Shown: positions 11,966 through 55,581 of the stretch, in pieces
Layout of the letters: each line of letters starts with the position of its first letter
How positions within the stretch are numbered: the first letter of the stretch is position 1
Assembly: GCA_045563715.1 (NCBI GenBank)
Contig: JBJLIP010000001.1
Coordinates: forward strand, 65,131-129,130
Length of the DNA: 64,000 nt
Direction of reading: 5' to 3'
From: Gammaproteobacteria bacterium
Lineage (GTDB): Bacteria > Pseudomonadota > Gammaproteobacteria > Magnimaribacterales > D2472
The notes under the pieces: generated by a model
What the model saw: only the letters and a program-made list of their open reading frames with translations
Database searches by the model: none
Told to the model about the DNA's origin: nothing
Made by a program: the position numbers and the translations under genes

Positions 11966-13402
11966 ATGAAAATCTACCTTAGTATTATTTTTAGCCTCCT
12001 CCTTGCACATGACGCGGTTTCTGATGATATTCCTTCAAGTGAAATAATACTACCTGAACTTGGTGATAGAGTTTCTGGAGCTGTATCAGCAGCACAAGAA
12101 AGAGCTATAGGAGAAATGTTTCTTGAACAAATATATTCACAGGCACCCCTGATATCAGACCCTCTTCTTTTTGATTATACAGAGCATTTGATTTATAGGC
12201 TTTCTGAGTTCAGTCAAGTGGATGATAGATATTTTAATGTTTTATTAATTGATGATAGCTCATTAAATGCTTTTGCTGCACCTGGAGGCATTATTGGTGT
12301 TAACGGTGGATTATTTCTTAATGCTGATAATGAGGGACAATTTGCATCAGTTCTTGCCCATGAGTTAGCTCATTTGAGTCAAAGGCATTTTGCTAGAAAT
12401 GTTTTAAAATCTCAAGATAGCAATCTTGCTTCAGCTTTGGTGATGGTTTCTTCCATTGCAATTGCATTGATTAGTAACAATCCGAACGCAATATCAGTTG
12501 GTCCAGCATTTCTTCAACAACAAAATTTAAGATATAGCCGTCTCTTTGAAAAAGAAGCTGATAGAGTTGGGTTTGCAAATCTTGTAAGAGCTGGTTACAA
12601 CCCGAAATCAATGGGTGAAATGTTTGAAAATATGAATGATATAAGAAGATTATCTGGAGACTTGCCGCCTGAATTCCTCCTGACACATCCACTTTCCTCT
12701 TCAAGGATTAGTGATGCTTTTAATGCTGCAGAGGGTATCTCCGAAGAAGGAAAAAAAAGTGATTCATTGGAGTTTGGTTTGATGAAAACAAGATTAGAGG
12801 TCTATTATGAAAAGATTCCCGCAAATGCTTTAAGATCTTATCAAGCTAAAGTAAATAACAACCCGTCTGATGCTAATATTTATGGCTTAGCCTTAGCACA
12901 TGAAAAAAATAGTAATTTTGATAAAAGCTTGTCTTTGCTGAACAATTTAATAGAAAAGTATCCAAAAAATCTTGTAATTAATACAACTAAAGTTGATGTC
13001 TTATTGTCTAATGATGAATTTAATAGAGCTCTTACTCTTGTTGATAGATTTCTAGAAATTTCTCCAAAAAATTATCCACTTTCAATTTCTAAGTCTAAAG
13101 TTCTTCTTGCTATGGAGAGATATTTTGAATCGGAAGAAATCATAAGAGATCAACTGTTAAGAAGAAATGATGATCCAGAGCTGTGGCTTTTATTATCAGA
13201 AATACAAAGAAGTAGTCAAAATATTATTGGATATCATCAAAGTAGAGCAGAATATTTTCTTTTATTAGGTCAAGATGAACAAGCGCTAAATCAGCTTGAG
13301 TTTGCCCTGCAACTTACACGAAATAATTTTCAGGTATCCGAGAGTATTATGAATAAGATAGTTAAAATTAAAAAAGATTTAAGTAATTCTAGAGGTCTTT
13401 AA
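11966..13402 (+). CDS. bepA: Periplasmic M48 metalloprotease with TPR domain, BepA (YfgC)
   Basis: 478 aa. Signal peptide, HELAHLSQRH zinc motif, C-terminal TPR-like repeats. perM/bcp neighbourhood. Confidence 0.88.
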   Translation: MKIYLSIIFSLLLAHDAVSDDIPSSEIILPELGDRVSGAVSAAQERAIGEMFLEQIYSQAPLISDPLLFDYTEHLIYRLSEFSQVDDRYFNVLLIDDSSLNAFAAPGGIIGVNGGLFLNADNEGQFASVLAHELAHLSQRHFARNVLKSQDSNLASALVMVSSIAIALISNNPNAISVGPAFLQQQNLRYSRLFEKEADRVGFANLVRAGYNPKSMGEMFENMNDIRRLSGDLPPEFLLTHPLSSSRISDAFNAAEGISEEGKKSDSLEFGLMKTRLEVYYEKIPANALRSYQAKVNNNPSDANIYGLALAHEKNSNFDKSLSLLNNLIEKYPKNLVINTTKVDVLLSNDEFNRALTLVDRFLEISPKNYPLSISKSKVLLAMERYFESEEIIRDQLLRRNDDPELWLLLSEIQRSSQNIIGYHQSRAEYFLLLGQDEQALNQLEFALQLTRNNFQVSESIMNKIVKIKKDLSNSRGL

Positions 13403-14615
13403 ATTTTTCTTTATTAAAAATTTTAATTCCAACTAAAGATAAAATACCTGCAATAGGTATACCTAAGATTGGCATGATACCAATTCCAATTCCTAAAAAT
13501 TTTCCTATTCCAATATAAATGCTGCCGGTTAAGTCACCAAATCGTGTTAAAAAAGTATCAATAAAAACTGAGGATTTATACCTATCATTTTTTTCTAATC
13601 CGCTATAGACAATTTCTCTACTGGGTTTGTTAAATGCATATTCAAAAACTCTAAGAATGGCTTGTGATATGACTACCACACCAACGCTTGGATAAAAGCC
13701 ATATAGTAAAAAAACAACTACAAATAAGGCTCCATATATAATTAAAATTGACCTTATTCCAATAAAAGAAATAACAAAATATGTTAAAAAAACTTGTGAT
13801 ATAAGTGTTAGAGGCGAAACTAACTGTTCAATTCTTCCGAACAACTCAATTCTTTCTGGAGAAAGATCTGAATATGCTTCGACTATTGGAATGGCACATA
13901 TCCATTGAATAGTCATTAAAAGAGTAAATAGCCAAGAATAAGTTGCGATTAATCTTATTTCGCTTTTTGTAATGATATTTTTTATCGGATCTAGTGCCGT
14001 GCCACCAACTTTACTTATCGAATTAACAGAAGCACGCGTATTAAAAATATAAATAGCCAAAAGCATTGCTAATAAAAGCAGTATTGATGATGTTAAAACA
14101 AAAAGCTCTAATCCATTATTTACAAATGACTCGGATAATCTAATAGCCAATTCAGATCCAAAAATTGCTCCAACGGAACCACCTGCCATTATAAATCCAT
14201 AAAATCTTCTTGATTTATAGTTCCTATATAAATTAATTATTAAAACCCAAAAAATTGACACCACAAAAAAAGAATAGATATTTGCCCAGACATAGAAAAT
14301 TCTTCCTAGCCAAACTTTTTGATAAATGTCTTCAGCTGTGAGAGACCTCGAGTAGAACAGAAATACAAAGAGGTTAATTATTAAAAAAGAATAACAATAA
14401 ATTACGATCTTTTTAAAATTAGATCTTGATGCAATCCATGAATATATTGGATTAATCAGTAACATTACCAATGCGGTACAAGATAGTAGTATTATGAGGA
14501 AATCATCACTGTAATTTTCAACAGCTAATTCATTTCTTACTGCTCTCATGACATACCATGAAGAAAGAACTAAAAAGAATAAAAAACTAGCAAGAAATAA
14601 ATCTTTTGGTTTCAT
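13389..14615 (-). CDS. Polytopic MFS-type membrane transporter with a TLC (ATP/ADP-translocase-like) style N-terminus
   Basis: 408 aa, about 11-12 hydrophobic helices. The N-terminus FLASFLFFLVLSSWYVMRAVRNELAV...INPIYSWIASR resembles, from memory, the start of Npt/TLC-family carriers. The subfamily is not verified. Confidence 0.5.
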   Translation of the reverse strand: MKPKDLFLASFLFFLVLSSWYVMRAVRNELAVENYSDDFLIILLSCTALVMLLINPIYSWIASRSNFKKIVIYCYSFLIINLFVFLFYSRSLTAEDIYQKVWLGRIFYVWANIYSFFVVSIFWVLIINLYRNYKSRRFYGFIMAGGSVGAIFGSELAIRLSESFVNNGLELFVLTSSILLLLAMLLAIYIFNTRASVNSISKVGGTALDPIKNIITKSEIRLIATYSWLFTLLMTIQWICAIPIVEAYSDLSPERIELFGRIEQLVSPLTLISQVFLTYFVISFIGIRSILIIYGALFVVVFLLYGFYPSVGVVVISQAILRVFEYAFNKPSREIVYSGLEKNDRYKSSVFIDTFLTRFGDLTGSIYIGIGKFLGIGIGIMPILGIPIAGILSLVGIKIFNKEKFKDL

Positions 14616-14739: not shown

Positions 14740-15393
14740 TTATTCCATATTTTTCAATAACTGCAAGGCCAAAGACGATGCAGTATTATTGGGATATTCT
14801 CTTACAACAAAATTATACTTATCTTTTGCTTTATCAAGATCATTAGATTTTAAATAAATATCACCAATTTTTTTGTGTGCTAGAGGAACTCTGTAATGAT
14901 TTGGATAAGAACTTATTAATTCCATAAAAAAATCTTTTGATTCATCTAACTCATTGTTAATGAGAGAAATTTCACCTAACCAAAAATACGAGAGAGGTTT
15001 CTTTTCATCATCGCTAAAACTTTTAACAAAAAAATTAAATAGCGTGAACGCCTTGTCATAATCCTGGTCTCTTAAGGCTTTGTCTGCTGCGCCATATACC
15101 TGATCTTTGCTATTGGGATCTTCTATTCCTTTAAATCTAATATCTGCATCTAATGCTAGATCAGTAGTATTTGCAGATTCTTCATCAGAAGAATTAAGAG
15201 ATTCATCAATTAATTTTTCTATGAGATAATTTTGAGATTCTATCTTATTTCTTAATTCAGCTATCTCTATCTCTAGTTCTTGAATTTTAAGAAATAGAAT
15301 GTCTGTTTTTGCGGTATCATTCTCGTCTGCATTAATGTCATTTGGTAAAAAACTTATTAAAACTAATAATATTAATGAGAATTTTTTATGCAT
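14740..15393 (-). CDS. cpoB: Cell-division coordinator CpoB (YbgF), coiled-coil plus TPR
   Basis: 217 aa. Signal peptide, N-terminal coiled coil (LKIQELEIEIAELRNKIE), C-terminal TPR repeats. Last gene of the tol-pal cluster. Confidence 0.85.
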   Translation of the reverse strand: MHKKFSLILLVLISFLPNDINADENDTAKTDILFLKIQELEIEIAELRNKIESQNYLIEKLIDESLNSSDEESANTTDLALDADIRFKGIEDPNSKDQVYGAADKALRDQDYDKAFTLFNFFVKSFSDDEKKPLSYFWLGEISLINNELDESKDFFMELISSYPNHYRVPLAHKKIGDIYLKSNDLDKAKDKYNFVVREYPNNTASSLALQLLKNME

Positions 15394-15881
15394 TAATTAA
15401 TTTCAACTCTTCTATTCTTAGAAAAACTAACTTCATCTTGCCCATATGCTACTGGTTTTTCTTCACCATAGCTTTTAACTGAAATTCTGCTTTTATTTAT
15501 TCCATTTAAAACAAAATAATCACTAACGGTTTCAGCTCTTCTTTGTCCTAATGCTAAATTATATTCTCTTGTACCCCTCTCATCTGCATGTCCAGAGAGA
15601 GTGATTTTAATGGACGGATTCTCATTTAATGCATTCACTGCGCTTTTTAAAGTTTGTATAGATTTGCTTGTTAAAGAAGATTTATCAAATTCAAAATAGA
15701 CAGTTGCGTTAGCAAATACTGCCTTGCTATCAAAATTAATGTTATCAGCTTTAGCAGAAGATGCCTTTACAGTTTTTACTCCTTCAGAATATACATTTTC
15801 TTCTGTAACATTCATACTCGAACAAGACGATAAAAAGATTATAACTGCAACAAGATTTAACTTATTTCTTAAAAAAAACAT
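15393..15881 (-). CDS. pal: Peptidoglycan-associated lipoprotein Pal
   Basis: 162 aa. Lipobox FLSSCSS. OmpA-like domain (LSGHADERGTREYNLALGQRRAE...NRRVEI). Confidence 0.94.
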   Translation of the reverse strand: MFFLRNKLNLVAVIIFLSSCSSMNVTEENVYSEGVKTVKASSAKADNINFDSKAVFANATVYFEFDKSSLTSKSIQTLKSAVNALNENPSIKITLSGHADERGTREYNLALGQRRAETVSDYFVLNGINKSRISVKSYGEEKPVAYGQDEVSFSKNRRVEIN

Positions 15882-15896
15882 AATTACTCCCTAAAA

Positions 15897-17153
15897 TTAT
15901 CTTAAAAATCCTGACCAGGCTGGCTCTCTTACAGATCCCTCTGTGGCAGGCAGTTTAAATTTAGCCCCACTCAGAGTAACTCCCGAAAGCAATCCCAAGT
16001 CCTCTTCTTTTATAGAATAAACTATAACATTTCCATTGGGCGAAATACTAGGAGATTCATCCATCTGAGACTCAGTAAGTGGCCTAATAAAATTTTCATC
16101 AAAATATTTTAATGCTATTTGAAAATTAACATCAGCTCTGTGAACAAAAACTATACCTTCATTATTTGGTAAATATGTGCCTTTTGCATTGTAATTACCA
16201 TCGAAAGTTATTCTTCTTGGTCGAGCATTAGATTTTCTTAAATTTATTTCATAAAGCTGTGGTGAGCCAGATCTACCAGATGTAAACATTATTTTTGAAC
16301 CTTTTTTTGACCATGTTGACTCTGTATCAATAGCATAATGATTGGTTAGCCTGGTTAAATTTTTATTCTTTAAATTTAAGATATAAATTTCTGCATTGCC
16401 ATCTTGGTACATTGTTAAAGATAAAAATTTGCCGTCTGGCGACCAAGCAGGAGAGCTTATTTGGGAAGAGTTTTCTATAACAAGCTCCCTGTCTCCAGAT
16501 GCTATATCTTGAATGAAAACTTTAGCCATTCCGGTTTCAAATGAAACATACGCTACTTTTTTTGAATCTGGTGACCAAGAAGGTGAAATTATAGGCTCTG
16601 AGCTTTCTAAAAGAATTTGCTCGTTCTTTCCATCAGCATCTGCTACCACAAGTCTATAATCTTTGTTTTGTGTTACGTATAAAATTTTTGTTGAGGCAAT
16701 ACCTTGAATACCAGTTATTTCTTCATAAATTCCATCACTTATGTAATGGGCCAATTGTCTATTCTTATTTGGGATACCGTAAACAGTTGAAGATCTTACC
16801 TTTGAGCCCTTTTTTATATCAAAAACTTGATATTCAGCTTTAATATTTGAAGATTCACTCGCTAGACCCCCAATAATTAAATAATCAATATTTAAAATCC
16901 TAAAATCATTAAATATAATTTCATCTTCATTATTTGGTATGGATAGCAAGTCATCATTATCAAACAAGTTAAACTCTCCGGTTCTGATCAAATTATTTTT
17001 AATAATTTGATCAATTTCTGAAGAGATCTGATCATCTCCATTGAACTTAATAACTGCCACTCTATATGGGTCTTGGGTGCCTTGTGTAATTTCTAAAATA
17101 AGTTCTGAAGAAATAAAGCTTGAAAAATATATCAATAAGAAGAATTTTTTCAT
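15897..17153 (-). CDS. tolB: Tol-Pal system beta-propeller protein TolB
   Basis: 418 aa. Signal peptide and repeated SP.WSPDG motifs (SPSWSPDSKKVAYVS, SPAWSPDGKFLS). Confidence 0.95.
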   Translation of the reverse strand: MKKFFLLIYFSSFISSELILEITQGTQDPYRVAVIKFNGDDQISSEIDQIIKNNLIRTGEFNLFDNDDLLSIPNNEDEIIFNDFRILNIDYLIIGGLASESSNIKAEYQVFDIKKGSKVRSSTVYGIPNKNRQLAHYISDGIYEEITGIQGIASTKILYVTQNKDYRLVVADADGKNEQILLESSEPIISPSWSPDSKKVAYVSFETGMAKVFIQDIASGDRELVIENSSQISSPAWSPDGKFLSLTMYQDGNAEIYILNLKNKNLTRLTNHYAIDTESTWSKKGSKIMFTSGRSGSPQLYEINLRKSNARPRRITFDGNYNAKGTYLPNNEGIVFVHRADVNFQIALKYFDENFIRPLTESQMDESPSISPNGNVIVYSIKEEDLGLLSGVTLSGAKFKLPATEGSVREPAWSGFLR

Positions 17154-17776
17154 GACGGATTAAAGGTTACTACAATATTTTTAAAATTTGATGAGTAAAC
17201 TGATAGAGGTATTTTACTGAAGAAATTGAATGTTTCTACCCTTTGAACTGCTTTTAAAGCTGAATTATCAAATCTAATATTCCCACTACTTCTAATAAGA
17301 TTTGCTTTAATTACTCTTCCATTTTTATTTATTGTTAGTCTTAGGTCGCATATAAGTCCATCCTGAATATTAATTGGTTTTCGCCATGCAGACTGAATAG
17401 TTTGAATAATTAAAGAGCTATACATTTCTACCTGATTTTGTTCTGATTCTAACGATAGAAGATCATCTTCTATTAAAAGATCTTCAACACTTATAGAGTT
17501 AATAAGTGAATCAAATGATATTGATTTTTCTGTCACGTTGTTTTGAATTATTGGCTCTGTAGATTTTACTTCTTGAATTTGAGTCTTCTTAACTTTAGCA
17601 TTTGAATTATCTTGCTTAGCTTTTTCTTCAAAAACTAGATTAACGTTTATAGTTTTACTTAATACCGATCTTTGTTGAGAATCAAAATAAAAAAAACCAA
17701 GTAAATATAAGATAATTATTCCATGAATAACAAACGATATAAATGAAGCCTCTAAATAAACTTTATTTACTCTCAT
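17150..17776 (-). CDS. tolA: Tol-Pal system protein TolA (short form)
   Basis: 208 aa. N-terminal TM anchor, K/E/Q-rich linker, TonB_C/TolA-III-like C-terminus. Sits between tolR and tolB. Confidence 0.8.
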   Translation of the reverse strand: MRVNKVYLEASFISFVIHGIIILYLLGFFYFDSQQRSVLSKTINVNLVFEEKAKQDNSNAKVKKTQIQEVKSTEPIIQNNVTEKSISFDSLINSISVEDLLIEDDLLSLESEQNQVEMYSSLIIQTIQSAWRKPINIQDGLICDLRLTINKNGRVIKANLIRSSGNIRFDNSALKAVQRVETFNFFSKIPLSVYSSNFKNIVVTFNPS

Positions 17777-18188
17777 AACCAGACGTTACTATTCCAATTT
17801 TTGTAATGCCAATGCTTTGTACTGATGCCATGGCCTTTGCAACAGCATCAAATGAGACATCTTTATCGCTTTGAAAAACAACCTCAATTTCAGGATTGGC
17901 ATCAAAAATAACTTTGGATTTTCTTTTTAATTCATTTAAATCAATAGACAAAGATTCATCACCAATATTGATAAAATAGTCTCCGTTCTTATTTATAGAT
18001 ACCACTAGTGGTTCGCTTTGGACACTCATCTTTGTTGTGTCTGTTTTTGGGAGATTTACTTCAATGCCTTGAATTAAAAGAGGAGAAAGCACCATAAAAA
18101 TAATTAATAGAACTAGCATTACATCTATATAAGGAACCACATTTATTTCAGCTTTAAGATTTTTTTTCTTGGCTAGCCTGTATATCAT
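17763..18188 (-). CDS. tolR: Tol-Pal system protein TolR (ExbD family)
   Basis: 141 aa. INVVPYIDVMLVLLIIFMV TM helix with the conserved Asp. Confidence 0.92.
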   Translation of the reverse strand: MIYRLAKKKNLKAEINVVPYIDVMLVLLIIFMVLSPLLIQGIEVNLPKTDTTKMSVQSEPLVVSINKNGDYFINIGDESLSIDLNELKRKSKVIFDANPEIEVVFQSDKDVSFDAVAKAMASVQSIGITKIGIVTSGYESK

Positions 18189-18856
18189 TACTTTTTAATA
18201 GATTGTTTATAGAAAATACTTGCTAGCTCTTCAGCAAAAATTAAAGTGCTTTGACTAATAGTCTCAGATTCTGAGGTAAATTTATTGAAAGCCACTACAG
18301 CCGGTATGGCTGCAAATAACCCCATGCCAGTTGCTATTAAAGCCTCAGATATGCCAGGAGCGACTGCATTGATTGTGGCTTGCGTTGCATCAGACAATCC
18401 TTGAAATGAAGTCATGATTCCCCAAACTGTGCCTAACAAACCTACATATGGACTAACAGAACCAACATTTGCTAAAAATGGTAAATGCTTGTTCATATCC
18501 TCTTCATCTGAGGCAATAGATACTCTCATGGATCTATTAATGCTCTCAAGATCAAGCTCAGTAATATTTTGATCAGATTTTATACTGTTATATTCATCAA
18601 ATGAATTTTTAAACAAACTCATAGCTCCATACACAGAGCCATCACTTGAAACTTCTTTATATAAATTATCTAAATCCTTGCCACTCCAAAATTTCTTGAG
18701 GAAATTATCATTTAAATTTTTTATTTTTCTAAAAAAATTATATCTTTCTACAATTACTATCCAGGATAAAATTGAGGCGATAAATAAAATTAGCATCACT
18801 ATCTTTACAACAATTCCTGCTTCTAAGAAAAGATTTAAAACTGAAACATCATCCAT
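18188..18856 (-). CDS. tolQ: Tol-Pal system protein TolQ (MotA/ExbB family)
   Basis: 222 aa. 3 TM helices and GLLGTVWGIM...ALIATGMGLFAAIPA. Confidence 0.94.
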   Translation of the reverse strand: MDDVSVLNLFLEAGIVVKIVMLILFIASILSWIVIVERYNFFRKIKNLNDNFLKKFWSGKDLDNLYKEVSSDGSVYGAMSLFKNSFDEYNSIKSDQNITELDLESINRSMRVSIASDEEDMNKHLPFLANVGSVSPYVGLLGTVWGIMTSFQGLSDATQATINAVAPGISEALIATGMGLFAAIPAVVAFNKFTSESETISQSTLIFAEELASIFYKQSIKK

Positions 18857-18864
18857 TATTTTTC

Positions 18865-19281
18865 CTATTTAAATATTAATAATAAATCATCTGAGAACCT
18901 TTGTGGTTTTTTTGTCACAAGATCTATAAGACAAACATCAATTGTCCCTACAACATATTCTTTGTTATTTTCATCGACAATTTTTTGATAAAAAATCATT
19001 CTGGCATTAGAGCCTTTTTCAACTGATGATTTGATAATTAAATTATCTCCAAGTTCAGCTGCTGCGATATATTCTAAATTAATTTTTTTTATAACAAATG
19101 CTAAATTAAGTTTCCGTAACTCATTTTGAGAAACTTTGTTAGCTGATAGAAATTCTGATCTTGCTCTTTCAAAATATTTTAGATAGTTGGAATGGTATAC
19201 AACCCCTTGAAAATCGGTATCTTCAATATAAATCTTAAGTCTTAGATCTCTACACTTGATAATTTTGCTCATGCAACTCAA
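18865..19281 (-). CDS. ybgC: Tol-Pal-associated acyl-CoA thioesterase YbgC (hotdog fold)
   Basis: 138 aa. IYIEDTDFQGVVYHSNYLKYFERARSEFL matches the YbgC/4HBT N-terminus. The start could be 19272. Confidence 0.82.
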   Translation of the reverse strand: MSCMSKIIKCRDLRLKIYIEDTDFQGVVYHSNYLKYFERARSEFLSANKVSQNELRKLNLAFVIKKINLEYIAAAELGDNLIIKSSVEKGSNARMIFYQKIVDENNKEYVVGTIDVCLIDLVTKKPQRFSDDLLLIFK

Positions 19282-19675
19282 TGTCTTCTTGAAAAAGTTC
19301 TAATATTATTTGAATAAAATCCGGCCATAACAAATCAACTGTAACAAGATTATTTTTAATATCTTTGTTGATTGAATTAGCAAGGACTCTAACTTTGATT
19401 GGCCTGTTATTAAATTTATATACTAGAGCTGGTTTTAAATTTTCTGCTTTTGATGAAGCGAGAACTTGCTCCCACCAATCAGGTCTTGGTTCTGCTCCTG
19501 ATCCATATGCCTTACACTCAATACACCATCTCCCTAACATAAGGTCAGGTAGTTCTTTGGTTCTTGTTTGCTCTAAAATTCTTTTAACTGGATTGTTTAA
19601 ATTTAGATCCTCTATGAGCGCATTTGCAATTTGTCTTTCAAATGCAGCTCCTTTATTTCTCGAGTTTATAGACAT
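19250..19675 (-). CDS. Stand-alone PD-(D/E)XK nuclease, Hjc / phage Holliday-junction-resolvase-like (hypothetical)
   Basis: 141 aa. NKGAAFERQIANAL (the KGxxxER of Hjc-type resolvases), ELPDLMLGRWCIECKAY (a D...ExK catalytic core), then PDWWEQV...KPALVYKFNNRP. It starts 2 nt after the yebC stop and overlaps the ybgC start. Confidence 0.55.
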   Translation of the reverse strand: MSINSRNKGAAFERQIANALIEDLNLNNPVKRILEQTRTKELPDLMLGRWCIECKAYGSGAEPRPDWWEQVLASSKAENLKPALVYKFNNRPIKVRVLANSINKDIKNNLVTVDLLWPDFIQIILELFQEDIELHEQNYQV

Positions 19676-19677
19676 AT

Positions 19678-20415
19678 TTAGACTTTAGCCTCAAAATCAT
19701 CAGGAAATTCAGCGTTTGTGTGAACCTCTTGAACATCATCTAAATCATCCATAAACTCCATTATATTGAGAACCTTTTCAGACATTTCATGATCTATATT
19801 TACTGACGTTTCCGCTCGAAGTGTTAGCTGCGCATTAATATATTTCACCTCATTTTTCTTAAAATTTTCTAAGACATTATTAAAATCATTGGATTCTGTT
19901 GTAACTTCAAAAAAATCTTCTTCTTCAGTGTAATCGTTTGCTCCAGATTCAATTACTAAATCCATTAATTCTTCATCTGAAATATCTTTAGATATGTGAA
20001 TTAACCCGAGCTTTTTAAATAAATATGCTACAGACCCATCGGTTCCAAGATTACCACCAAATTTAGAGAAAGCATGTCTTACATCTGAAACTGTTCTATT
20101 TCGGTTATCTGTCATAGTCTCAACAAGAATTGCAACTCCTCCTGGTCCATATCCTTCAAATACTATTTCTTCCAAAGATCCTGTCTCTCCTGTGCCAGAG
20201 CCCTTTTCTATTGCTCGTTTTATTGTATCTTTTGGCATATTTGCTGAATTAGCTTTTTCCAAAGCCAATCTCAGTCTTGGATTATCATTTGGGTCAGGCC
20301 CATCTTTTGCAGCAACAGTAATTTCTCTAATTACTTTTGTCCAAACCTTACCTCTAGAGGCATCTTGTCGTGCTTTTCTATGTTTTATGTTAGCCCATTT
20401 TGAATGACCTGCCAT
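19678..20415 (-). CDS. yebC: YebC/PmpR family transcriptional regulator
   Basis: 245 aa. MAGHSKWANIKHRKARQDASRGK is the invariant YebC N-terminus. Confidence 0.95.
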   Translation of the reverse strand: MAGHSKWANIKHRKARQDASRGKVWTKVIREITVAAKDGPDPNDNPRLRLALEKANSANMPKDTIKRAIEKGSGTGETGSLEEIVFEGYGPGGVAILVETMTDNRNRTVSDVRHAFSKFGGNLGTDGSVAYLFKKLGLIHISKDISDEELMDLVIESGANDYTEEEDFFEVTTESNDFNNVLENFKKNEVKYINAQLTLRAETSVNIDHEMSEKVLNIMEFMDDLDDVQEVHTNAEFPDDFEAKV

Positions 20416-20418
20416 AAA

Positions 20419-22185
20419 CTAATCTTCCTTATGAGTGCTAATAATTTTTAATTCATCAAGCTGATCTTTTTCAACTTTACTAGGTGCGTCTGTTAGCAAA
20501 CAGGCAGCACTTTGTGTTTTAGGGAAAGCAATCACGTCTCTTATATTAGTAGTATCGGTTACTAACATTACAATTCTATCAAGACCAAATGCTATTCCTC
20601 CATGAGGAGGACAGCCAGATGAGAGAGCTTTTAATAAGAATCCAAATTTACTTTCAGCATCTTCTTTTGAAATATTAAGAATATTAAAAATAATTTTTTG
20701 CATTGCATTGTCATATATTCTTAGAGAACCTCCTCCTATTTCATATCCATTTAAAACAACATCGTATGCATGAGCAATTGAATTCATAGGATTGTCCTCT
20801 AAATCTTTAGTTGAACATTTTGGAAGTGTAAATGGATGATGAAGTGGTGTTAAATTACCTTCTTTATTGGTTTCGAACATTGGAAAATCTACAATCCAAC
20901 AAGGCGCCCATTTGGTCAAATATAAGTCTAGATCCTCTCCAATTTTTTTAATTAGACTACTCATTGATAAATTTACAACTGGTTCACTGCCAGCTCCAAA
21001 GAAAATTAAATCATCAGTTTTGATATCTAAGGATTTAATTATGTTTGCTACTGTTTCTGGTTTTAAAAATTTTAGTATTGGTGATTGAATGCCATTCTCT
21101 AAATCACTCACATCATTTATCTTTATATATGCTAAGCCTTTTGCACCAAGCTTTGAAACAAATTTTGTATAGTCATCAATTTGTCCTCTAGATAATGAAT
21201 TACCATTAGGTACCTTTAAGGCAACTACCCTTGATCCTTTTTTTTGTGCTGGTTCAGAAAAAACTTTGAACTCTTCATCTTTAACTAATTCCGATATATC
21301 AACCAATTTAAGAGGTATTCTTAAATCAGGTTTGTCGCACCCATAGTCTCGCATAGCATCATGCCAATTAATTACTTCAAATTTCTCTAGCTTGTCGCCG
21401 CAAAACTCTTTAATAATATCTTTAATCATCTTTTCACTAATCTTCATAATTTCATCTTGATCAATGAATGATGCCTCAATGTCTATTTGAGTAAACTCTG
21501 GTTGTCTGTCAGCCCTTAAGTCTTCGTCTCTAAAACATCTTGCTATTTGATAATACTTATCTAAACCACCTATCATTAAAAGCTGTTTAAAAAGCTGAGG
21601 TGATTGGGGTAAAGCATAAAAACTACCAGGCTGAACTCTACTGGGTAAGATATAGTCTCTGGCCCCTTCTGGAGTAGCTTTTGTCAATATAGGCGTTTCA
21701 ATTTCATGAAAATCATTATTATCTAGATAATTCCTGATTAAAGAGGTAATTTTTGACCTAGTTATTATTCTCTCATTCATCTCTGGCCTTCTAAGATCTA
21801 GAACTCTATTTTTTAACCTAACGTCCTCATTTACTTCTTGGTATTCATCAATTGGAAATACTGGTGTACTTGCTTTACTTAAAATAGTTAAATCTTTTAC
21901 TTCGATTTCGATTTCGCCTGTATGCATATTTTTATTAACAGTGCCTTCCAGCCTGTTACGAACATTACCTTTTATCTGGACAACGTATTCATTTCTAATT
22001 GATTCAGCTAATTTAAAAGACTTTTCATTATCAGGATTCACAACAGCTTGGCATATGCCTTTTATATCTCGAACATCAAGAAAAATTACCCCTCCATGAT
22101 CTCTTCTTCTATGAACCCAACCACAGATTGTTACTTCTTGTTCAACATTTGAAGATGTTATTTCACCGCAATAATGAGATTTCAT
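20419..22185 (-). CDS. aspS: Aspartyl-tRNA synthetase
   Basis: 588 aa. OB-fold N-terminus (GWVHRRRDHGGVIFLDVRD), QSPQLFKQLLM, FRDEDLRADRQPEFTQID, GGIAFGLDR. Confidence 0.96.
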   Translation of the reverse strand: MKSHYCGEITSSNVEQEVTICGWVHRRRDHGGVIFLDVRDIKGICQAVVNPDNEKSFKLAESIRNEYVVQIKGNVRNRLEGTVNKNMHTGEIEIEVKDLTILSKASTPVFPIDEYQEVNEDVRLKNRVLDLRRPEMNERIITRSKITSLIRNYLDNNDFHEIETPILTKATPEGARDYILPSRVQPGSFYALPQSPQLFKQLLMIGGLDKYYQIARCFRDEDLRADRQPEFTQIDIEASFIDQDEIMKISEKMIKDIIKEFCGDKLEKFEVINWHDAMRDYGCDKPDLRIPLKLVDISELVKDEEFKVFSEPAQKKGSRVVALKVPNGNSLSRGQIDDYTKFVSKLGAKGLAYIKINDVSDLENGIQSPILKFLKPETVANIIKSLDIKTDDLIFFGAGSEPVVNLSMSSLIKKIGEDLDLYLTKWAPCWIVDFPMFETNKEGNLTPLHHPFTLPKCSTKDLEDNPMNSIAHAYDVVLNGYEIGGGSLRIYDNAMQKIIFNILNISKEDAESKFGFLLKALSSGCPPHGGIAFGLDRIVMLVTDTTNIRDVIAFPKTQSAACLLTDAPSKVEKDQLDELKIISTHKED

Positions 22186-25313: not shown

Positions 25314-26321
25314 TTATTTTGATTTACTTGTTATATAAGAAGATCTTATTTCTTTAACAAGTTTATTCTTAACCTTTGCATTTTCTTTCAAGAATAAACC
25401 AGCTTTTGTTTTGCCTTGACCGATAGTTTCTCCTTCTAATTTATAAAATGCGCCAGACTTATCAAGTAATCCAAGTTTATTCCCATAATCTAATATTTCA
25501 CCTTCTTGGTTAATTCCCATCCCATACATGATTTGGAATTCTGCTTGTTTAAATGGGGGTGATACTTTATTTTTGACAACTTTAACTCTTGTCTCATTAC
25601 CTATAACCTCATCTCCTTCTTTAACTGCACCAATTCTTCTAATATCTAACCTTACTGATGAGTAAAATTTGAGAGCGTTACCACCTGTAGTAGTTTCTGG
25701 GCTTCCAAACATTACACCAATCTTCATTCTTATCTGATTAATAAAGACAACTGTAGCTCCAGATCTTTGAATATTGCCAGTAATTTTTCTTAAGGCCTGT
25801 GACATTAATCTAGCTTGAAGGCCAACATGATGATCGCCCATTTCACCTTCAATCTCTGCTCTTGGTACTAATGCTGCAACAGAGTCAATAATTACTAAAT
25901 CAACACTTTTGGATTTTACCAGCATATCTGCCACCTCGAGAGCTTGCTCGCCAGTATCTGGTTGAGACAAAAGAAGTTCGTCAACATTAACTCCAAGTTT
26001 TTCAGCATATTGCGGGTCTAGAGCATGCTCAGCATCTATAAAGGCACATGTGCCTCCCTCTTTTTGACATTGAGCAATGATTTGTAAAGTTAGTGTTGTT
26101 TTACCCGAAGATTCAGGCCCATATATTTCAGTTACCCTTCCCTTAGGGATGCCACCTATGCCCAGAGCTATATCTAGACCAATGGATCCAGTTGAGATCG
26201 ATGGAATGTCAAGATTCTCTCTATCTCCCATTCGCATTACTGTTCCTTTACCAAAATGGTTATCTATATCTGCAAGTGTATCTTTTAAAGATTTTGAATT
26301 GGTATCTTTTGATTTAGGCAT
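25314..26321 (-). CDS. recA: Recombinase RecA
   Basis: 335 aa. Walker [47 protein letters not shown]. Confidence 0.98.
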
Positions 26322-54654: not shown

Positions 54655-55581
54655 ATGAAGTCCAGCTTAACATTAATCCTATTTTCTTTGATGGTTTTCT
54701 TGGTCTCGTGTTCAACGCAGGAAGTAAAGAAAACAGATTCATTTTTTATGAATTTAGAGCTCCAAACCTCAAATAAGAATAAAGAAATGATAATTGAAAA
54801 CGTACTAGAACAAAATATCATCTTTTCTATAGATTTTAATAAAGAAGGTTCTTACAGGCTTGATGACAATATATTAGACTCAAGTTTAAAATATTTTTGT
54901 AATGGTTTTATTCAGGATCAAAACATATATTTGCAGTCATTAGTTTTTGGCCCATCTAAAATTAAGGACAAAAAAATACTAATAATTTATTCTGAAAGTT
55001 TTGAGGAGTATGCCAATGAACTCAAGAAGAGTTATCCCAATGAATTATATTTTTATTTAGACAGAAATAATTACGAAGATGCAATTAAAGATATATTTAA
55101 TGTTCATGATAGTATTGATAAGCATTTAAAAATTTCTAAACTTGATAAAAATCTAAATTTTGATCATTCTCCAAGGATTAGAAATGATATTTCAAAAATA
55201 TATTTTCTTCTTGATTATAGTTTTGGGAAAACAGTTGTCCCATATGTAAGAAATTATGCATTTAAAATTGATTCTTATTCTTCAAGTGAAATATTTCATG
55301 AAGCTAATAATATTAAAAAGCTTTTTGATTTTGAAAATCTTTATACACCACTATCTGAAGAGCTAATTGAAAAAATACAGCAAAAGAAAAATATTAAAAC
55401 CATTAGAAATGAATTAGAAAAATTGTTAATTAAAGATTTTTTATTAATTGAGAAGTTATACCAAAATAATCTTTTTGAAAAAAACATTTCACTTAATACA
55501 AGTAATCAAAAAATTCGAAATAATAATAAGTGTATAGATAGAAGTTTTGAAATTTACAAGATTTCTTCTAACGATTTCTAG
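54655..55581 (+). CDS. lpoA: LpoA/LppC-family lipoprotein, truncated (C-terminal domain only)
   Basis: 308 aa. Lipobox FLVSCS. RIRNDISKIYFLL, YSSSEIF and CIDRSFEIYKI resemble E. coli LpoA RRDIDAIYIVA, YASSRS and VINRNLSWLQY (from memory). Divergent from rsmI as yraM/lpoA is in E. coli. Confidence 0.55.
   Translation: MKSSLTLILFSLMVFLVSCSTQEVKKTDSFFMNLELQTSNKNKEMIIENVLEQNIIFSIDFNKEGSYRLDDNILDSSLKYFCNGFIQDQNIYLQSLVFGPSKIKDKKILIIYSESFEEYANELKKSYPNELYFYLDRNNYEDAIKDIFNVHDSIDKHLKISKLDKNLNFDHSPRIRNDISKIYFLLDYSFGKTVVPYVRNYAFKIDSYSSSEIFHEANNIKKLFDFENLYTPLSEELIEKIQQKKNIKTIRNELEKLLIKDFLLIEKLYQNNLFEKNISLNTSNQKIRNNNKCIDRSFEIYKISSNDF

Follow-up and report, generated by a model that had tools for sequence, protein, structure and literature searches.

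A phage-type, Hjc-like nuclease in the ruvCAB slot of SAR86 as a candidate junction resolvase

How does a gammaproteobacterial lineage without RuvA, RuvB and RuvC finish recombination? The question is raised by a 64,000-nt stretch of DNA (the window; 32% G+C) from a Gammaproteobacteria bacterium of the order Magnimaribacterales, or SAR86 (assembly GCA_045563715.1, contig JBJLIP010000001.1, positions 65,131 to 129,130). SAR86 is among the most abundant bacterial groups of the surface ocean, and RuvABC is regarded as near-universal in Proteobacteria. In the window, the place between yebC and ybgC-tolQRAB that ruvC, ruvA and ruvB occupy in related bacteria holds one small open reading frame (ORF), which we call ORF141 (19250..19675, minus strand). 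An earlier note, made from the letters of this stretch, had proposed that it encodes an Hjc-like nuclease that displaced RuvC and, at this locus, RuvAB. We find that ORF141 encodes a PD-(D/E)XK protein that has its kin in phages, resembles the archaeal junction resolvase Hjc and is kept at this position throughout the SAR86 loci that we compared. The reading that we consider probable is that ORF141 is a domesticated phage-type junction nuclease, an ancient in-situ replacement of ruvCAB that works with RecG.

A small gene kept in the ruvCAB slot

We started with the fit of ORF141 between its neighbours. The ORF list and the junction sequence agree exactly with the earlier note that a 141-aa frame begins 2 nt past the end of yebC (19678..20415, minus strand): the stop codon TAA at 19680-19678 is followed by 'AT' and then by the ATG of ORF141 at 19675, with a GAGG 13 nt upstream of this start. 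At its other end ORF141 overlaps ybgC (18865..19281, minus strand), as that note had said, and its figure of about 30 nt needs correction. The overlap is more likely 23 nt, counted from the ATG at 19272 that gene callers choose as the ybgC start; it would be 32 nt from an upstream TTG. The gene order is aspS, yebC, ORF141, ybgC, tolQ, tolR, tolA, tolB, pal, cpoB, and among the sites scanned at the locus there were no promoter-like or terminator-like ones above background between the genes of this string.

Next, we asked what stands at this position in other genomes. A YebC-anchored scan of 185,579 species-representative genomes gave 80 loci that were kept, mostly gammaproteobacterial, with fetched flanks of up to 10 kb in which ruv genes were sought by tblastn. 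In 70 of the 80, ruvC lies directly past yebC, and 62 carry the full yebC-ruvC-ruvA-ruvB series, in most cases with ybgC and tolQ next; among them are Pseudomonas, Marinobacter, Cellvibrio, Porticoccaceae and Halieaceae. The Pseudomonas-type order that the earlier note had given is thus confirmed, and the position of ORF141 between yebC and ybgC-tolQ matches that of the ruv genes. The top match of the scan was the SAR86 single-cell genome AG-313-N18. All SAR86 loci (the window and L001-L005, L007, L009, L013, L069, L089-L091 and L094-L095; 30-35% G+C) read yebC-ORF141 and then ybgC-tolQ wherever the contig reaches, two contigs stopping just past ORF141. Across all lineages, yebC and ORF141 are either separated by 2 nt or overlap by 1 nt or 4 nt. 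No ruv genes were found in the SAR86 loci within the fetched flanks and, as that note had stated for the window, tblastn with Pseudomonas RuvC, RuvA and RuvB gave no match in the 64 kb at E<=1e-3. The three genes of the ruvCAB loci take up about 2.2 kb, compared with 0.43 kb for ORF141.

One further locus of the survey has an arrangement of its own. In the metagenome-assembled genome (MAG) Methylococcaceae CSMAG_543 (34% G+C; L022:8070-9941), ybgC and tolQ come straight after yebC, with neither ruvCAB nor a gene of the ORF141 family (PDDEXK_15, described below) in between. Here, too, the ruv genes of a low-GC gammaproteobacterium are gone from the slot.

Within SAR86 the gene is under strong purifying selection. 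Between the window and L001, amino-acid identity is 94% for ORF141, 89% for YebC, 87% for TolQ and 61% for YbgC, and the ratio of non-synonymous to synonymous substitution rates (dN/dS) is about 0.03 for ORF141, 0.06 for YebC, 0.04 for TolQ and 0.22 for YbgC, with synonymous sites saturated (pS 0.72). Against the deeper SAR86 loci L005, L007, L013 and L094, identities are 56-63% for ORF141, 53-71% for YebC, 38-60% for TolQ and 30-44% for YbgC. Across SAR86 families ORF141 identity is about 56-64%, similar to or above that of YebC and above those of TolQ and YbgC, and its dN/dS ranges from 0.03 to 0.25 across comparisons. ORF141 has thus changed in step with its housekeeping neighbours. The SAR86 orthologues are chromosomal and always in the same position. 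As a separate observation, ybgC evolves far faster than the genes around it, yebC, ORF141 and tolQ all lying at 87-94% in the comparison with L001.

The exact ORF141 protein is present on 114 contigs of up to 835 kb and has been deposited as 'hypothetical protein' from marine gammaproteobacterial MAGs (MAQ98483.1 and MFL2714554.1); the clusters of its orthologues bear the name 'SAR86 cluster bacterium'. Some orthologues are already labelled 'Holliday junction resolvase' by the Joint Genome Institute (JGI) pipeline. For a few members (124-138 aa) of orthologue clusters 1 and 8 the JGI name is 'acyl-CoA thioester hydrolase', which is probably a mix-up with the overlapping ybgC.

Family, active site and predicted fold

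To what family does the protein belong? The earlier note had called it an orphan, a description that does not hold: ORF141 has more than 600 close homologues, and an exhaustive search of 1.84 billion cluster representatives returned 247 clusters (50% identity) that match it at E<=0.001. Profile hidden Markov model searches, which that note had suggested, place it in Pfam PF24608 (PDDEXK_15, 'Phage putative PDDEXK endonuclease'), with 39.9 bits against a cut-off of 27 (E=5.2e-10, residues 4-109). No Pfam family beyond this one, including Hjc, UPF0102/YraN, RuvC, RusA and RecU, matched at E<=10; no NCBIfam model matches ORF141, and no PADLOC defence family does at E<=1. In a Pfam scan of 60 diverse relatives, all 60 matched PF24608. 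Hjc (PF01870) was weakly matched by three of them (best E=2.4e-4) and was the sole other recurrent family with a match below 0.01, and UPF0102 was matched by none at E<=1. We conclude that ORF141 is a bona fide member of PF24608.

ORF141 also matches PHROG 244 (phrog_244). This group is labelled 'RusA-like Holliday junction resolvase', yet its proteins are PD-(D/E)XK/Hjc-like and have no RusA homology; the label is a functional nickname that can mislead annotation. Descent from RusA proper (PF05866) was rejected, given that no Pfam family besides PF24608 matched and that the PHROG name carries no homology.

The motifs quoted in the earlier note, NKGAAFERQIANAL, ELPDLMLGRWCIECKAY and PDWWEQV...KPALVYKFNNRP, are all found in the ORF141 translation. 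In alignments of 60 and of 129 family members, residues K8, G9, E13, R32, D44, E53 and K55 are invariant, and all are present in ORF141; R14, Q36, W67, Q70, P82, Y86 and K87 are nearly invariant. The predicted active-site codons span 19511..19639 on the minus strand (E13 at 19639-19637, then R14 and R32, D44 at 19546-19544, E53 at 19519-19517 and K55 at 19513-19511), and the K87 codon lies 3' of these, at 19417-19415. Since a search of the Protein Data Bank (PDB) with the single ORF141 sequence gave only chance matches, all to albumin, a profile of the family was needed. When the PF24608 profile was compared with all PDB sequences, the top four matches were archaeal Hjc proteins: 1GEF (E=0.005), 2WCZ, 4TKD and 2WCW. 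In the 1GEF alignment E13, R14, R32, D44, E53, K55 and K87 of ORF141 pair with E9, R10, R25, D33, E46, K48 and K81 of Hjc, the residues that are essential in the Pyrococcus furiosus enzyme (2024 review, PMC10956419). All seven thus pair with invariant or near-invariant positions of PF24608.

The structure prediction and Foldseek comparison, also proposed in the earlier note, point the same way, with Hjc as the best match among solved structures. An AlphaFold2 model of ORF141 based on the 129-sequence alignment (mean pLDDT 85.8, pTM 0.83) places E13 on the first helix, D44 just ahead of a strand, and E53 and K55 on the strand that follows. Foldseek against the PDB returned Hjc chains from Archaeoglobus, Pyrococcus and Sulfolobus as all of its top 14 matches (probability 0.95-1.00, E from 5e-4), with moderate template modelling (TM) scores of 0.40-0.59; then came weaker matches, among them Cas4 SSO0001 and restriction enzymes. 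In a comparison with predicted viral structures the highest TM score was 0.82, and several of the lower-ranked matches are named Holliday junction resolvase. With Hjc leading both the profile search and the fold comparison, and with the E/D/ExK residues aligned, the earlier description of an Hjc-like PD-(D/E)XK nuclease is borne out, and PF24608 is an Hjc-like branch of these nucleases outside the Pfam Hjc family proper.

Two other identities found no match. RecU (PF03838) was without a Pfam match at E<=10 and is not named among the 50 Foldseek PDB matches listed; for RuvC there was no Pfam match, and the tblastn search of the window with the Pseudomonas protein was blank.

Origin, partners and competing readings

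Where did the gene come from? Its relatives lie overwhelmingly in phage contigs, in agreement with the suggestion of the earlier note that it is possibly phage-derived. Divergent relatives (30-50% identity) are found in 20-40-kb phage contigs together with genes for terminase, head-tail connector, lysozyme, holin, DNA methylase, primase or helicase. Cultured examples are the Roseobacter phages CRP-701, 406, 811, 821 and 822, in which the gene is annotated as 'putative PDDEXK endonuclease' or as hypothetical. The relatives that ORF141 peptide patterns find in IMG/VR do not exceed 40% identity. The nearest sequence outside SAR86, P0137, is 44% identical and comes from a phage-like marine contig of 39% G+C (L231); about 44% is also the highest identity of the SAR86 clade to any phage member found. 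At L231:4900-6125 the start of the PDDEXK_15 gene is coupled to the stop of an exonuclease VIII (RecE)-like gene (phrog_412, Pfam DUF3799), near a primase-helicase, and the locus looks like a compact phage replication/recombination module. A search with P0137 itself returned two proteins. In neighbour-joining trees (218 leaves in the full tree) the 21 SAR86-type sequences form one clade with P0137 as its sister, which fits a single ancient acquisition followed by vertical descent.

For the loss of RuvABC and RadA we rely on published marker-gene tables. Across 732 putative environmental SAR86 genomes, 27 of 28 missing marker genes are systematically lacking (Ramfelt et al. 2024, ISME J, PMC11582366). 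In the closed genome of the SAR86 isolate HIMB1674, PF02075 (RuvC), PF07499 (RuvA_C) and PF05491 (RuvB_C) are marked absent, as are the RadA, RecN, MutL, MutS and Rep markers, and all eight are 0 in almost every environmental SAR86 genome shown in the portion of the table considered here (Table S1, PMC11582366). RecF, RecO, RecR, Mfd and YqgF (PF03652) are present in SAR86 (Table S1, PMC11582366). The earlier note had named an intact ruvCAB operon elsewhere in the genome as a finding that would speak against its proposal; these markers, absent in HIMB1674 and 0 in nearly all environmental genomes of that portion, contradict it. In the main text of the same paper the words 'resolvase' and 'ruv' never occur, and our literature search returned nothing that links SAR86 to a replacement resolvase, or this gene to the loss of Ruv. 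For a gammaproteobacterium that lives free, the recombination and repair set of the closed genome is unusually reduced.

The lineage keeps other recombination genes. recA lies in the window at 25314..26321 (minus strand), about 5.6 kb upstream of ORF141, with Pfam RecA_N and RecA_C recorded on the corresponding 335-aa product. Neither the window nor the SAR86 loci examined gave a recG. A codon-biased pattern for the RecG motif DEQHRFGV, run over metagenomes and followed by a cluster-name look-up, retrieved 120 RecG-bearing contigs, several of them with 32-35% G+C and a gammaproteobacterial-type RecG of 685-686 aa. The RecG of one of these, L177, shares a 90%-identity cluster with URQ65208.1, 'ATP-dependent DNA helicase RecG [SAR86 cluster bacterium]', which is encoded on a 1.0-Mb contig; therefore at least some SAR86 genomes encode RecG.

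We propose the following sequence of events. In the ancestor of the SAR86 order, ORF141 would have replaced ruvC-ruvA-ruvB between yebC and ybgC-tolQRAB and would have been a vertically inherited core gene since, presumably co-transcribed with yebC and the tol-pal genes. RecA loaded by RecFOR would still make joint molecules and, RuvABC and RadA being gone, RecG would move the junctions without cutting them. ORF141 would bind a four-way junction as a homodimer, like Hjc, with E13, D44 and E53 predicted to bind Mg2+, K55 as the putative catalytic lysine, and R14, R32 and K87 probably in contact with the DNA; it would then make paired nicks across the junctions that RecA and RecFOR have made. 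No RuvAB would be needed, RecG providing branch migration as in Escherichia coli ruv mutants rescued by RusA. The genetics offer an exact precedent: in E. coli the prophage resolvase RusA, once switched on, suppresses ruvA, ruvB and ruvC defects when RecG is present, and the Hjc of Methanobacterium restores repair in E. coli that lacks RuvC (PMC10956419). The displacement put forward in the earlier note is supported by the slot, the likeness to Hjc, the phage kinship and the published absence of Ruv; that the protein cleaves junctions is what we infer. That the whole order may recombine without RuvA, RuvB, RuvC or RadA, on one domesticated phage Hjc-like nuclease and RecG, is a broader claim for which we see the chances as even.

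Several points weigh against this reading. The likeness to Hjc is remote (15-24% identity, TM scores as given above), with ORF141 falling below the Pfam Hjc model, and neither fold nor active site is proof of junction specificity, because the same PD-(D/E)XK core serves many other jobs. In the literature we found no biochemical or genetic test of any PF24608 member. Bootstrapping, done on a reduced set of sequences, recovered the exact monophyly of the SAR86 clade in only 23 of 50 replicates. The absence of RuvABC is known from tables for other SAR86 genomes, the present genome being represented by 64 kb only, and the evidence for RecG comes from a different SAR86 contig than the window. Finally, YqgF/RuvX is considered a resolvase by some authors. 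SAR86 keeps this protein (PF03652; PMC11582366).

The alternative that survives best, which we nevertheless regard as unlikely, is that ORF141 is a real and conserved PD-(D/E)XK nuclease whose main substrate is something other than a Holliday junction (flaps, stalled or reversed forks, DNA ends or RNA), its slot being a legacy of foreign DNA that landed when ruvCAB was deleted. The versatility of the PD-(D/E)XK core fits this, as do the Cas4 and restriction enzymes among the weaker Foldseek matches and the Pfam name of the family, which says only 'putative PDDEXK endonuclease'; viral resolvases, moreover, are typically promiscuous on branched DNA, according to PMC3864405. However, the seven residues that Hjc needs all align with invariant or near-invariant positions, Hjc is the top match by sequence profile and by fold alike, and the closest relative from phage is part of a recombination module. 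The slot also belongs to the resolvase that was lost, and for this lineage, which has retained RecA, RecFOR and RecG, no other resolvase is listed.

More doubtful again is that SAR86 junctions are handled by YqgF/RuvX, by RecG-driven reversal or by helicase-topoisomerase dissolution, with ORF141 as an accessory or back-up nuclease. In E. coli, YqgF is chiefly a nuclease of rRNA processing and no substitute for RuvC, which speaks against the first of these routes. On the other hand, PF03652 (YqgF, Pfam label 'Holliday junction resolvase') is present in the SAR86 marker table (PMC11582366), RecG is present as well, and reverse branch migration catalysed by RecG removes junctions without cleavage (PMC10956419). 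Yet E. coli ruv mutants with RecG alone stay repair-deficient until RusA is switched on (PMC10956419), and ORF141 is as conserved across the order as YebC and TolQ, which argues for a non-redundant role.

The earlier note had itself offered another identity, that of a relocated and divergent YraN/UPF0102 homologue, and it was right that yraN is missing from its usual place near 55.6 kb: none lies between rsmI and an sspA-like gene. YraN is, like ORF141, a small PD-(D/E)XK protein related to Hjc, but UPF0102 (PF02021) was unmatched by ORF141 and by all 60 relatives, every one of which matches PF24608, no named YraN/UPF0102 structure is among the 50 Foldseek PDB matches listed, and the relatives are found in phage genomes. 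On the Pfam scans and the PDB profile search we rejected this identity, which is now highly improbable. A decaying prophage remnant, selfish element or defence nuclease with no housekeeping role, suggested by the predominantly phage-borne family, is just as implausible and was rejected too, since the surroundings hold no other phage genes and show the same gene order in SAR86 lineages that diverged deeply, dN/dS lies well under 1, the frame is closely joined to those of yebC and ybgC, and PADLOC returned no defence family. We keep to the reading that ORF141 is probably a domesticated phage-type nuclease in place of ruvCAB.

The rest of the neighbourhood was named from Pfam matches recorded for contigs with an identical or near-identical ORF141 protein. 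aspS, for aspartyl-tRNA synthetase (20419..22185, minus strand), is the first gene of the conserved aspS-yebC-[ruvCAB] block; yebC is of the TACO1/YebC family (TACO1_YebC_N and Transcrip_reg on the identical protein), and ybgC encodes a 4HBT thioesterase. The downstream part of the gene string is tolQ-tolR-tolA-tolB-pal-cpoB (14740..18856, minus strand), with matches to MotA_ExbB, ExbD, TonB_2, TolB_N/PD40, OmpA and TPR. Downstream of cpoB, a 408-aa ORF (13389-14615, minus strand) has no recorded Pfam match on contigs with an identical ORF141 protein, and its 418-aa counterpart in related contigs has a weak MFS_1 match only. Farther away, a 308-aa ORF (54655-55581, plus strand) also has no Pfam match, and the earlier statement that ORF141 is the only true hypothetical gene in the window must be dropped. 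This ORF is divergent from rsmI and stands at the expected place of lpoA; immediately downstream of it are the sspA-like glutathione S-transferase gene, petCBA, rpsI and rplM, the usual yraN and diaA being absent.

Significance and comparison with known systems

What does the locus add? Non-orthologous displacement of resolvases (RecU, RusA, Hjc), the Pfam entry PF24608 and the loss of Ruv markers in SAR86 are already known. New is the connection of a phage-type Hjc-like nuclease in the exact ruvCAB slot, order-wide, with the loss of Ruv, which we did not find in the literature. Until now the absence of Ruv in SAR86 has entered the record only under 'missing marker genes', which depress estimates of genome completeness; ORF141 would be a concrete answer to how an abundant, streamlined bacterium finishes recombination and repairs its replication forks, and a surprising one for a proteobacterium. 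If our reading is true, SAR86 would be a counterpart in nature, ancient and order-wide, of the 'rus' suppressor strains of E. coli known from the laboratory and, to our knowledge, the first proteobacterial case in which a resolvase of archaeal or phage type has taken over the ruvCAB slot. It would be a clean example of in-situ non-orthologous displacement and would give PF24608, which is widespread in marine phages, its first functional anchor. Should ORF141 keep a phage-like promiscuity on branched DNA, it could affect recombination outcomes and microdiversity in streamlined genomes. As a small, self-contained candidate junction-resolving enzyme, it is easy to express and assay.

Compared with RuvC, the system that it would have displaced, ORF141 has the same position past yebC and before ybgC-tolQRAB and the same presumed task, the resolution of RecA-made junctions. 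The fold of RuvC is RNase-H-like, and the protein acts in a complex with the RuvAB motor; no similarity between it and ORF141 was detected by Pfam or tblastn. RecU, a resolvase of PD-(D/E)XK fold that stands in for RuvC throughout Firmicutes and Mollicutes, is the textbook case of non-orthologous resolvase displacement. Bacteria with RecU keep RuvAB, whereas SAR86 is without RuvA and RuvB too; the RecU gene, moreover, is located outside the ruvC slot, and ORF141 has no RecU Pfam match. YraN/UPF0102, a small bacterial PD-(D/E)XK protein and distant relative of Hjc, differs in its usual genomic context, next to lpoA, and in the Pfam scans, where it has no match to ORF141.

The phage members of PF24608 and PHROG 244 share all the family-invariant residues with ORF141. 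They typically lie in the replication/recombination modules of 25-40-kb phage genomes, whereas the members of the SAR86 clade lie in chromosomes, in conserved synteny, and are passed on vertically. We liken ORF141 in its proposed function to RusA of the E. coli DLP12 prophage, a small phage-derived resolvase independent of RuvAB, and the setting of rus suppression is equivalent to that of SAR86 in gene set, with a phage-type nuclease and RecG but no RuvABC. The fold of RusA, with its catalytic aspartates, is unrelated, and ORF141 has no RusA Pfam match; the E. coli gene is silent until activated by mutation, in contrast to ORF141, which is a fixed core gene. The closest counterpart is archaeal Hjc (PF01870; 1GEF, 2WCW, 1HH1), which is likewise small (about 120-140 aa), has the PD-(D/E)XK core, shares the seven residues essential in Pyrococcus, and is the best match among solved structures by profile and by fold. 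Hjc works without RuvAB, as we propose for ORF141. PF24608 differs from it in motifs of its own (SRxKG, RxLxQ and WWxQ), in a C-terminal helical extension and in hosts that are bacterial or phage rather than archaeal, and partners of Hjc such as PCNA have no counterpart in the SAR86 case.

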